A stretch of DNA of 51,377 bases from Promethearchaeota archaeon (GCA_030603385.1 JAUVXW010000034.1:1-51377), one strand, 5' to 3'. Positions 5,543 through 48,248 are shown, counted from the first letter of the stretch. The notes: a model not told the origin generated them from the letters alone. Numbers and translations are program-made.

Positions 5543-5679
5543 AATTTTAACCTTTTAATTTCTAAATTTTTTAATATTTACTTCAAAAACTAAATAAAGA
5601 TAGTTATTTATAAAATAATAATATACAAGGAAATTTTAATGAAAAATTATCAGAATTAGACTATAGATGATCGTAGACT

Positions 5680-5910
5680 ATGATGGATTCTGAAATAAAA
5701 GATTTAGGAAAAAGAAAGTCCAAAAGAATACTCACATTGATATTAGGAATAGCAGCTATAGCAACGGTAATTTCAATAGTTCTAATCTTTACCTTATCTA
5801 ACGATACAAGTAACGGTGGTTCAAGTTGAGCTTGTGTAATCATAAATTTTCCATTCTTAGAACTATTGAGAAATTATATTGTACAAATAAATTTTGGGCT
5901 TCTATTGTAA
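5680..5910 (+). CDS. Candidate small membrane selenoprotein, 76 aa, U50-x-C52 (absent from the ORF track)
   Basis: MMDSEIKDLGKRKSKRILTLILGIAAIATVISIVLIFTLSNDTSNGGSS-(TGA 5827-5829)-ACVIINFPFLELLRNYIVQINFGLLL-TAA; a SECIS-like hairpin starts a few nt after the TAA. Confidence 0.7.
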
Positions 5911-5917
5911 AAATAAG

Positions 5918-5986
5918 AATCGAGTTGAATGAGTCTTACAAAAAAATGATAGTTGTAAGAGGACGAACCTAGCAATGGTTTCGGTT
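5918..5986 (+). promoter_or_regulatory. SECIS-like element (eukaryote/Lokiarchaeota type), copy 1
   Basis: GAATGA-G-TCTTACAA-[AAAAATGATAG]-TTGTAAGA-GGAC, side hairpin AACC-TAGCAAT-GGTT, closing stem AATCGAG/TTCGGTT; homologous to the hairpin after the UGA-containing hdrA, with compensatory changes. Confidence 0.8.
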
Positions 5987-6051
5987 TTTTATAAAATAAC
6001 TATTAATTTATTAGGTAAAATTTTAAAAAATCAGTATGGTTAGGGATAAAT

Positions 6052-6204
6052 ATGCCAGATGCTTTTCTTACAGTTAATGAAAAAAAGATCCCTTTAAAAG
6101 ATTTCATGCAGGAAATGCTGACAAACATAATTTTAGGTTATCTCAAATCCACAAAAGCAGTTCCTGAAAATATTGAAACGATTGAGATTGAAATTAAGCT
6201 ATAA
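6052..6204 (+). CDS. Small protein (50 aa) resembling the C-terminal domain of MobB-type proteins
   Basis: MPDAFLTVNEKKIPLKDFMQEMLTNIILGYLKSTKAVPENIETIEIEIKL; below the ORF-track cutoff. Confidence 0.6.
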   Translation: MPDAFLTVNEKKIPLKDFMQEMLTNIILGYLKSTKAVPENIETIEIEIKL

Positions 6205-45960: not shown

Positions 45961-47991
45961 ATGTCTGAAGAGCAGACCATTAGATTAGGCGTATATATCT
46001 GTAGATGAGGAGTAAATATTGGTGCTAGCATTGATTGCGATATTGTTAGAAATTATGTTGAACTACTCACTGGTGTCATAATTGTCCGAGTAAATGATTT
46101 TACTTGCAGTGATCCAGGACAAAAACTTATTAAGAACGATATTTTAGATTTAGATTTGAATCGGATTGTTGTTGCTGCTTGTACACCAAAAATTCATGAA
46201 TCCACCTATCGAGCAGTATTAATTGAAGCGGGATTAAGCCCATATTATTTTCAAATGGTTAATTTACGCGAACAGTGCTCTTTTATTCACTCAGATGACA
46301 AAAAAAATGCCACTGAAAAAGCTATAAGATTAGTACAAGCAGGAATAAATCGTGCACGGGAATTAGAAATTATCCCTCATAAAAAAATATCGGTGGAAAA
46401 AGCTGTTTTAGTTATTGGTGCTGGAATTGCTGGGATGAATGCTGCTTTAGATTTAGCAAACCAAGGGATTCCTGTTTATTTAGTCGAAAAAGAAGCCACA
46501 ATTGGTGGAAAAATGGCACAATTAGACAGAATTTACCCCACCGATGATTGTGGAATATGAGTACTCGCACCTATTATGGTAAGTACTTCAAAGCACCCAA
46601 ATATAGAATTATTTACTTATAGTGAAATTATTGAATTTGGTGGTATCCCTGGCAATTATAATGTTAAAATACGAAAAAATCCCCGTTATGTTAATGAAAA
46701 GAAATGTACTGGTTGCGGATTATGTACAATAAAATGCCCAATAAAAGTTCCGAACGAATTCAATAGAGGTATTGGCGAAAGGAGCGCAATTTACATACCT
46801 TTTCCACAAGCTGTTCCTAAACTTGCTTTAATTGATAGGGATGTCTGTATAGAATGTAAAAACTGTCAAAGAGACTGTCCAGCAGAAGCTATTGAATTTG
46901 ATCAAGAACCCGAGTTTATCGATTTAAGAGTTGGAGCAATCATTGTTGCTACTGGATGGGATGAATATCCAATTATGAAATATAACGATTATAAATATGG
47001 TATTTATCCTGACGTAATTACACAGATAGAGCTAGAGCGAATATTAAGTCCAATTGGACCAACAGGGGGTCATCTTTATAGGATTTCTGATGGAAAAACC
47101 CCAAAAACAGTAGCAATGATTCAATGTGTTGGTTCGAGAACCTTAAAAGGGAACCCCTATTGTTCTGTAGTTTGTTGCAGTGTTGCTCTTAAAAACGCTC
47201 AACTGCTAAAACAAGAATATCCGGATATGGAGATTGTTATTTTTTATATTGATGTTCGAGCATGGGATAAAGGAAATGAAGAATATTACAGAAAAGCAAG
47301 AGAAGCAGGTATAATGTTGGTTCGGGGAAAAGTAGGAGATATAAGAGAAGATCCAGAAACAAAAAAGCTAAAAGTTCGAGCTTCTTCAACTTTAACGGGT
47401 GATTTAATTACTTTGAACACGGATTTAGTCGTATTATCAACAGGCATGGTCCCTTCTAAAAATGCAGCAAAAACTATTGATATTTTAGGATTAAGCAAGG
47501 ATTCGAATGGTTTTTTACGTGAGATTCATGGATGCCTAAAACCTCAAGAGACAAATAATATGGGTATTTATATATGTGGATGTGCCGCTGGACCCAAAAA
47601 TATCCCTTATTCAGTATCAACAGCGTTAGCCGCAGCAAGTAAGGCATCAACATTACTTTCTAAAGATACAATAATTCAAGAATTAATTATTGCTGAAATA
47701 GATGAAGATCTGTGCATGGGTTGTCGTAGATGTGAAAAACTCTGTTATAATAATGCAATTATAGTTAATGGAGAAGGTATTGCAGAAGTAGATGATTTAA
47801 AGTGTAAAGGTTGCGGTGTTTGCGTTTCATCATGTCCCGCCCGAGCAATCGACCTCAAATATTACAGAGAAAAACAATTTGTCGAAGAAATGAAAGGGAT
47901 TTGTAGTATTGAAATTGAATCTATTGAATCTATTGAATCTATTGAATTTGTAATGAAAGAGATTGAAGCATTAGCTCCTCATAAAATTTAA
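45961..47991 (+). CDS. hdrA: Selenocysteine-containing heterodisulfide reductase subunit A, 676 aa, U16 and U200 (split into two ORFs in the track)
   Basis: ATG 45961 after AAGGTGG. GVYICR-TGA(46006)-GVNI aligns to GAFICHCGINI, and TDDCGI-TGA(46558)-VLAP aligns to TNDCAICILAP in the paralogue. All in one frame, with a 3' SECIS-like hairpin. Confidence 0.93.
47914..47947 (+). repeat. 9-bp tandem repeat ATTGAATCT, about 3.8 copies (IES repeats in the HdrA tail)
   Basis: Directly visible in the sequence. Confidence 0.9.
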
Positions 47992-48062
47992 ACCGAAAAA
48001 GAATGATCCTTTCAAAAAAATTATAGTTGAAAGGGAACTAACCCATAGCCTGGGTTTTCGGT
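47992..48062 (+). promoter_or_regulatory. SECIS-like element, copy 2 (3' UTR of Sec-hdrA)
   Basis: ACCGAAAA/TTTTCGGT closing stem; GAATGA-T-CCTTTCAA-[AAAAATTATAG]-TTGAAAGG-GAAC; side hairpin CCCA-TAGCC-TGGG. Confidence 0.85.
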
Positions 48063-48248
48063 ATAATAATATTTCTTAGATTTAGGGTTTTGATTTATTG
48101 AAAATTTTTTCTAATTTTAGTATTTTGTAATAAGTTTAAATTATGATTAATTCATAATTACCCTTATTAGATATTTTAAGCATTTCTAATTTCCTGTTAT
48201 AAGTGGAATTTGATTATTATATATTTTTTTATTTTTTTGTTAAAAAAA

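Follow-up and report, generated by a model that had tools for sequence, protein, structure and literature searches.

A candidate family of small single-pass membrane selenoproteins associated with a Lokiarchaeota-type SECIS element in Asgard archaea

Eukaryotes, whose closest relatives are the Asgard archaea, possess small membrane selenoproteins. SELENOK and SELENOS are eukaryotic ER-membrane selenoproteins in which a C-terminal Gly-rich arm bearing selenocysteine (Sec, U) is directed toward cytosolic partners, and in SELENOK the basic cluster is located C-terminal of the transmembrane (TM) helix. Thioredoxin reductase carries a C-terminal Gly-Cys-Sec-Gly redox arm, and the C-termini of SELENOK/S and of thioredoxin reductase resemble a G-U-G-stop ending. 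Five selenoprotein families were listed in 2016 (PMC4989117), seven for Asgard archaea in 2024 (PMC11227280), and 11 for all Archaea in 2026 (PMC13188914). The proteins given by Mariotti 2016, Sun 2021, Huang 2024 and the May 2026 review are soluble redox enzymes or enzyme subunits only, none of them membrane-anchored, and the published surveys of archaeal and Asgard selenoproteomes have proceeded mostly by homology to known families. The recoding element of Lokiarchaeota (lokiSECIS) is defined by an AUGA motif, a 9-bp stem, an 11-nt loop (AAAAA...(A)G) and then GA or AA, and is located just after the coding sequence (PMC4989117, section 11); it is also known as the Asgard type I eSECIS-like element, and variants of it are described (Huang 2024, PMC11227280). 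In the Asgard DsbA-like and AhpF-N-terminal-like selenoproteins the SECIS resembles the hdrA, frhD or frhA SECIS of the same organism, a resemblance that suggests acquisition from existing genes (Huang 2024, PMC11227280).

The DNA analyzed here (a stretch of 51,377 nt from a Promethearchaeota archaeon, GCA_030603385.1 JAUVXW010000034.1, hereafter the window) carries at 5680–5910 on the plus strand what is, judging from its sequence and that of its homologues, very probably a genuine gene in which the UGA at codon 50 is decoded as Sec under the direction of a Lokiarchaeota-type SECIS, giving a 76-residue single-pass membrane protein. The recoding mechanism is known; the protein class is new. 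The frame starts at ATG 5680 and has 76 codons followed by TAA at 5908–5910, and readthrough of the internal TGA at 5827–5829 (codon 50) is needed to reach this TAA; homologues have the same layout with one in-frame TGA. The N-terminal segment (residues 1–16, 5680–5727), acidic first and then basic (KRKSKR), is predicted by the positive-inside rule to be cytoplasmic. It is followed by a single predicted TM helix (residues 17–39, 5728–5796; best 19-residue Kyte-Doolittle window 2.8), which an AF2 model places within a helix of residues 3–43 at low confidence, and by a polar Gly/Ser-rich linker, SNDTSNGGSS (residues 40–49, 5797–5826), probably flexible, for which the model has no secondary structure at residues 44–51 and a pLDDT below 50 at 46–49. 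The codon read as Sec stands in the context GGSS-U-A-C, and TGT at 5833–5835 encodes Cys52, the putative partner in a U-x-C motif; 26 codons (5830–5907) separate the TGA from the TAA. An ORF absent from the gene listing and having each of these elements, from KRKSKR to the TAA ending at 5910, had been described in an initial annotation of this DNA, and the description is confirmed throughout. The AF2 model as a whole is helix, loop, helix with a pLDDT of 64 and is thus too weak for a fold search.

Under translation table 11 the locus yields a 49-aa ORF only, and public gene calls in close relatives are likewise cut at the TGA, at 45–49 aa; one public call of 73 aa (P0002) is translatable only with TGA as Trp. 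This is precisely the product expected if the TGA were an ordinary stop, in which case the gene would encode a 49-residue membrane peptide and the hairpin that follows would be a SECIS-like relic, a terminator or a regulatory RNA, a reading against which the structure and distribution of the hairpin and the conservation on both sides of the TGA are set below. An antisense ORF of 60 aa at 5661–5843 is dismissed as a shadow ORF; every antisense frame has stops in 18 of 20 homologous loci.

The hairpin is a lokiSECIS-type element at 5919–5985 on the plus strand, starting 8 nt 3' of the TAA and with its AUGA core 18 nt past the stop and 99 nt past the UGA. It consists of a basal helix (5919–5923/5981–5985); the AUGA (5929–5932), in an internal loop opposite GA 5962–5963; helix II, of nine positions (5933–5941/5953–5961; eight Watson-Crick pairs and a closing G.G); an 11-nt apical loop, AAAAAUGAUAG (5942–5952); and a TAGC-containing 3' side hairpin (5966–5969/5977–5980). 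All features of the published definition are present: the AUGA immediately 5' of the main stem, the nine-position stem with its 11-nt loop, the A-run at the start and (A)G at the end of AAAAAUGAUAG, the GA directly 3' of the stem (GAC, 5962–5964), and the position just 3' of a coding sequence with an in-frame UGA. The comparator in the window is the SECIS of a two-Sec hdrA (47987–48077, plus strand; AUGA at 48003–48006), which, like an element on contig C47, has AAC 3' of the stem, a published variant. The two window elements share 81% column identity and the TAGC side hairpin and differ by compensating stem changes, which bears out the earlier proposal that they are homologous, and their minimum-free-energy folds have the same three-helix shape. 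The window contains exactly two instances of the pattern GAATGA-N(5-12)-AAAAATNATAG (5927 and 48001), and 100 shuffles contain none. A T6 run directly after the basal helix (5985–5990, plus strand) may be an archaeal oligo-T terminator.

The minimum-free-energy fold of 5910–5995 alone is not better than that of shuffled sequences (z −1.1), and the centroid structure differs; the structure is supported instead by covariation in an alignment of 20 elements. This set comprises 18 elements from homologous loci, the hdrA element, and one HdrA-VhuD element. In the alignment 92% of cells are paired and 13 of 18 pairs have changed on both sides, a result equaled in 0 of 500 shuffles, and sliding the stem partners lowers pairing to 51% or less. 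Covariation is present in all three helices, including seven of the nine stem pairs of helix II, and RNAalifold recovers the same three helices unaided. The AUGA motif is found in all 20 elements, with UGA invariant and A or G as the first base. An Rfam scan of the window gave no match at gathering thresholds; the Loki-type SECIS is not captured there.

A covariance model (R1) built from SECIS elements was run over the whole 3.9-Mb assembly. It returns nine matches at E ≤ 7e-5, the best of which is the element at 5919–5985 (91 bits; hdrA comparator, 81.5 bits), and each of the nine is located between −20 and +19 nt relative to the stop of an in-frame-TGA ORF. The owners are the ORF described here, the stand-alone HdrA of the window, three HdrA-VhuD pairs, two PrxL (W-U-x-H-C) and two proteins designated 'UU', whereas four weak matches (E > 0.07) do not follow in-frame-TGA ORFs. 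A spread of the hairpin across the genome after genes lacking an in-frame UGA, which would have counted against the initial annotation, is thus not observed, and the restriction to in-frame-TGA genes also argues against a terminator or regulatory RNA behind an ordinary stop. The genome is Sec-competent: tRNA-Sec is found at C41:48216–48308 with SepSecS directly adjoining, the latter scoring 486 bits, over its cut-off, and a PSTK-like gene scores below its cut-off. The window gene shares with the other lokiSECIS genes (HdrA, VhuD, VhuU, PrxL) the same recoding signal with all its defining features and its position just after the coding sequence, and in this genome it occurs together with HdrA, VhuD and PrxL. 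It differs from these families in that its product is unrelated, tiny, membrane-anchored, not an enzyme subunit, and without a known Cys homologue.

The hdrA of the window (45961–47991, plus strand) has in-frame TGA at codons 16 and 200. Its own SECIS starts ∼10 nt past its stop, and no VhuD/FrhD gene lies between (45961–48077, plus strand). In published surveys the hdrA and frhD genes are invariably neighbors, with one common SECIS after the second gene.

Relatives searched in six frames yield homologues for most genomes of the genus, and nearly all of these carry a single in-frame TGA. Across 400 genomes of the phylum, a profile search recovers the family in 46 of 53 genomes of the genus and 30 of 42 of the sister genus, as well as in several further genera of the family and in one other family of the class, and TGA is present at the aligned Sec site in ∼71 of 77 matches with E < 1e-4. 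Among the long open frames of this genome just 13.5% end in TGA, compared with 71% in TAA; an ordinary stop would therefore not be expected to remain TGA over such divergence. Searching for related loci by tblastn with the single protein gave no match. In a pattern scan of public genomes the SECIS occurs almost only in MAGs labelled Promethearchaeota, Hermod-, Hod- or Thorarchaeota, and among the matches listed a family member is directly upstream of it in 38 of 80 loci. The pooled set from all searches comprises 74 distinct TGA-bearing ORFs from Promethearchaeota/Lokiarchaeia MAGs, all laid out as a basic N-terminus, a single TM helix, a Gly-rich linker and the TGA, in most cases with a Cys close to it. 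Gly immediately precedes Sec in 53 of the 74, and 65 have a Cys codon no more than five residues away (U-x-C in 43, U-x3-C in 14, C-x-U in 5, C-U in 2, and U-x2-C in 1), most often two codons downstream. A Cys retained beside the site speaks against termination at the TGA. In nine members no Cys is nearby, and a U-x-C redox pair therefore cannot operate throughout the family.

The SECIS accompanies the TGA closely. It is present in 20 of the first 20 homologous loci, and R1 matches are found 3' of all 27 further loci of the genus and of the sister-genus loci. Three members from the other family (L021, L079, L080) give weak R1 scores only (E 0.016 or worse), and manual inspection reveals a variant AUGA/GA hairpin right after their stops. 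Cys-rich relatives without TGA give no R1 match. Two closely related paralogues of the sister genus, L082 (G243:C134) and L083 (G241:C17), read ...GGGGGGGTIFG-TAA-C... at the Sec site, and the R1 search finds no SECIS at either. Such TAA variants are what an ordinary stop would allow, and homologues ending at the site with TAA or TAG would have weighed against Sec insertion; they number only ∼2 of 75, however, the hairpin has vanished along with the TGA in both, and both genomes retain a TGA-bearing family copy, so that the TAA paralogues are read as secondary loss. Among the tested members of the window's family-level group TGA and SECIS are shown to be strictly paired, as expected from the linked hairpin that had been predicted.

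The initial annotation had also anticipated coding conservation past the UGA, and this is borne out by the neighboring Cys codon described above and by two further tests, all three stronger than pairwise substitution counts. In divergent members with 33-codon tails the BLOSUM62 score per residue after the TGA is +0.72 in the ORF frame compared with −0.53 and −0.31 in the other frames, codon position 2 is the most conserved, and the tail length of 33 codons is equal even in very divergent members. Across 33 sequence clusters (≤60% identity) the frame is open toward the SECIS for 680 codons, compared with 301 ± 44 in shuffles of the same spacers, and 0 of 2000 shuffles reach as high. The pairwise excess of third-position changes is clear before the TGA (86 vs 44 and 33) and weak after it (37, 33, 20), indicating that the tail is loosely constrained. 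Tail length in the 74 ORFs has a median of 26 and a range of 1–61 residues, and several members end U-G-stop or U-G-G-stop, with tails of 1–2 residues. In these short-tail members the SECIS is still ∼70–95 nt from the TGA, and stops have accumulated in the former tail. The weak third-position bias and the endings one or two codons past the TGA are, together with the gene calls and the TAA paralogues, what can be said for an ordinary stop; set against the persistence of TGA, its pairing with the SECIS, the neighboring Cys, and a frame both open and similar in sequence up to the SECIS, they leave that reading extremely improbable.

The same tail data bear on a different possibility, namely that Sec is inserted but the tail is a functionless spacer, translated only to set the distance between UGA and SECIS. 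Its variable length, its weakly coding-like substitution patterns, and the distance held by short-tail members (SECIS 71–73 nt from the TGA, with stops gathered in the former tail) would fit a spacer, whereas the in-frame BLOSUM score, the conservation of position 2 and the 33-codon length kept by divergent members would not; moreover, a pure spacer needs no open frame, and the frame is open to the SECIS in most of the 33 clusters. A spacer is considered unlikely. The tail is most readily read as translated, mildly constrained, and dispensable in some lineages. In the window protein it is moderately hydrophobic, helical in the AF2 model, and, on the BLOSUM62 and open-frame tests, weakly constrained but coding; its best 15-residue hydropathy window is 1.2, under the value usual for a TM helix.

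No relationship of the family to a described one could be found. Searches of Pfam and NCBIfam with P0001 and 19 members gave no match beyond TM-driven noise, and PF10961 (SelK_SelG) and PF06936 (Selenoprotein_S) were absent for the 19 members at E ≤ 1 and for P0001. The family is likewise absent from the published selenoprotein lists searched, although literature coverage was incomplete and prior publication is possible; the early judgment that the protein fits none of the known selenoprotein families holds to this extent. A profile search of 1.84 billion representative proteins gave 47 matches, which are truncated forms of 39–54 aa and full-length calls bearing W at this position, of which the one checked was P0002, described above. 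Neither the 400 Asgard genomes nor the 1.84 billion representative proteins yielded a Cys-for-Sec orthologue, so that the classic Sec/Cys pair is absent; conservation of either TGA or Cys at position 50 had been suggested as a check, and it is TGA alone that is conserved, in ∼74 distinct homologues. Three candidate Cys homologues were rejected: P0050, the single Cys-containing candidate among the representative proteins, has a bacterial SmpB/ECF context and is unrelated, G055 is a two-TM protein without Cys, and G049 is an unrelated Cys-rich TM protein. A candidate paralogue in the same genome (C9:6475–6633) lacks a proper ORF and does not belong to the family.

The DsbA-like and AhpF-N-terminal-like proteins resemble the window family in being lineage-restricted selenoproteins with an hdrA-resembling SECIS, but they derive from Cys homologues of thioredoxin fold, and the window family has neither a thioredoxin fold nor a detectable Cys ancestor. 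Cys-rich Asgard TM peptides (A4; L063–L068) have a similar basic N-terminus, one TM helix, an extramembrane Cys segment and an aromatic amphipathic tail. They are ∼100 aa long and belong to other Asgard families (G100, G141–G149), and they differ in having 5–8 Cys in C-x3-C repeats, no TGA and no SECIS; the hhalign match of A4 is confined to the basic and TM part, and homology to the Sec family is therefore unproven.

In 72 of 74 members the residues N-terminal of the TM helix carry a net positive charge (mean +3.1); on the C-terminal side the mean is −0.4. The positive-inside rule would thus place the Sec outside the cytoplasm, as initially predicted, at a predicted 8–17 residues from the membrane. 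The proposed arrangement is one in which the short basic N-terminus would remain in the cytoplasm while the Gly-rich tether, the Sec and the tail would be exported. A flexible Gly/Ser tether of ∼10 residues would then lead to the Sec-x-Cys motif, and the 24 moderately hydrophobic residues C-terminal of Cys52 would form a hydrophobic or amphipathic helix, probably lying on or in the outer leaflet; in most members the tail appears too weakly hydrophobic for a second TM helix. Sec and the nearby Cys could serve as a selenenylsulfide redox pair or as a ligand for soft metals or chalcogens, and in the Cys-free short U-G-stop forms Sec might form an intermolecular bond with a partner. At the cell surface the protein would most likely exchange with or capture thiols, polysulfide, peroxides or soft metals. 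Topology and function are inferred from the positive-inside rule and from analogy, and that the Sec is on the extracytoplasmic face, acting as a tethered selenol, is given a chance approaching even.

The analogy closest to such chemistry is the thioredoxin reductase arm, in which a selenol beside a Cys on a flexible Gly-flanked segment is likewise capable of forming a selenenylsulfide. The window family differs in the order and spacing of U-x-C, in the lack of a flavoprotein domain, in being membrane-tethered, and in the nine of 74 members without Cys. The likeness to SELENOK/SELENOS pointed out in the initial annotation survives as a loose analogy of layout, in that a single TM helix, a flexible Gly-rich segment and a Sec near the C-terminus are common to both, and short family members end G-U-G-stop. 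The layout in full fits these short forms only; most members have a further 15–33 residues after Sec. There is no sequence or Pfam match, and the window family has its basic cluster on the opposite flank of the TM helix, with the consequence that its Sec is predicted outside, not on the cytosolic C-terminus as in SELENOK/S. The likeness is accordingly superficial, with homology not shown, and common ancestry with the eukaryotic ER-membrane SELENOK/S is very improbable.

A functional counterpart of SELENOK/SELENOS would nevertheless be conceivable if the topology were reversed, with the N-terminus outside and the Sec cytoplasmic. Such an orientation would agree with the order of TM helix, Gly-rich disordered segment and near-C-terminal Sec, with the G-U-G-stop ending that the short forms have in common with SELENOK/S and thioredoxin reductase, and with the cytoplasmic Sec chemistry usual among known archaeal selenoproteins. 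It runs counter to the consistent N-in charge bias, to the location of the SELENOK basic cluster after its TM helix, and to the finding that 0 of 19 members match PF10961 or PF06936, and it is considered improbable.

Returning to the outward orientation, this may be the first membrane-anchored archaeal selenoprotein with its Sec displayed outside the cell, a surface selenol, usually paired with Cys, that would serve in soft-metal capture or in the extracellular chemistry of thiols, polysulfide or peroxides, in a family dependent on Sec and without a Cys form; this composite proposal is advanced tentatively, as somewhat less than evenly probable. If true, a tethered outward selenol would be used by syntrophic sediment Asgard archaea. 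The family would in any case represent a new class, a tiny membrane-anchored selenoprotein, probably outward-facing, without a Cys counterpart. It is present in the majority of genomes in at least two Lokiarchaeial genera and accounts for a sizeable share of their SECIS elements; since it is unlisted, the published selenoproteomes are undercounted. These genes are cut short or overlooked by annotation pipelines and can be recovered by a search that starts from the SECIS. Given the kinship of Asgard archaea and eukaryotes, a eukaryote-like SECIS on a putative, lineage-specific membrane selenoprotein bears on the diversification of Sec usage before eukaryogenesis.

Several observations concern the surroundings of the gene and other candidates. 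A conserved ORF of 50 aa (6052–6204, plus strand) follows in the same orientation at 16 of 20 loci, and at 66 of 109 when redundant loci are counted, with copies, including that of the window, 72–100% identical. It has no Pfam match, and in NCBIfam it weakly matches (E 1e-4) the C-terminal ∼45 residues of MobB/FeS PRK14494; it appears to have its own AT-rich promoter region after a T-run; a functional link is unproven, and it may be no more than a syntenic neighbor. In 45 of 109 family loci (e.g., L050:1835–2956, minus strand) a 374-aa membrane protein without Pfam match is encoded ∼0.6 kb upstream on the same strand, and these loci also have an MFS transporter on the opposite strand; the upstream neighbor in the window is instead an alpha/beta hydrolase. 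In the same genus, L069 (G025:C63:88000–88700) is a second kind of small TM ORF, with ...DDEKCKR-U... and an R1 SECIS match after it, and may be a separate C-x2-U membrane selenoprotein. Elsewhere in the genome of the window organism, the two 'UU' ORFs, of ∼110 aa (C34:53504–53803, minus strand, and C10:102205–102540, plus strand), have an adjacent double TGA (Sec-Sec) in the motifs ..HAD-U-U-ADV.. and ..GC-U-U-EKV.., and a lokiSECIS match is found 3' of each. They were rejected as VhuU, which has ∼50 aa and one Sec. No Pfam family matches them, 22 of 23 matches in relatives retain the double TGA, and they may constitute a further unlisted selenoprotein family.
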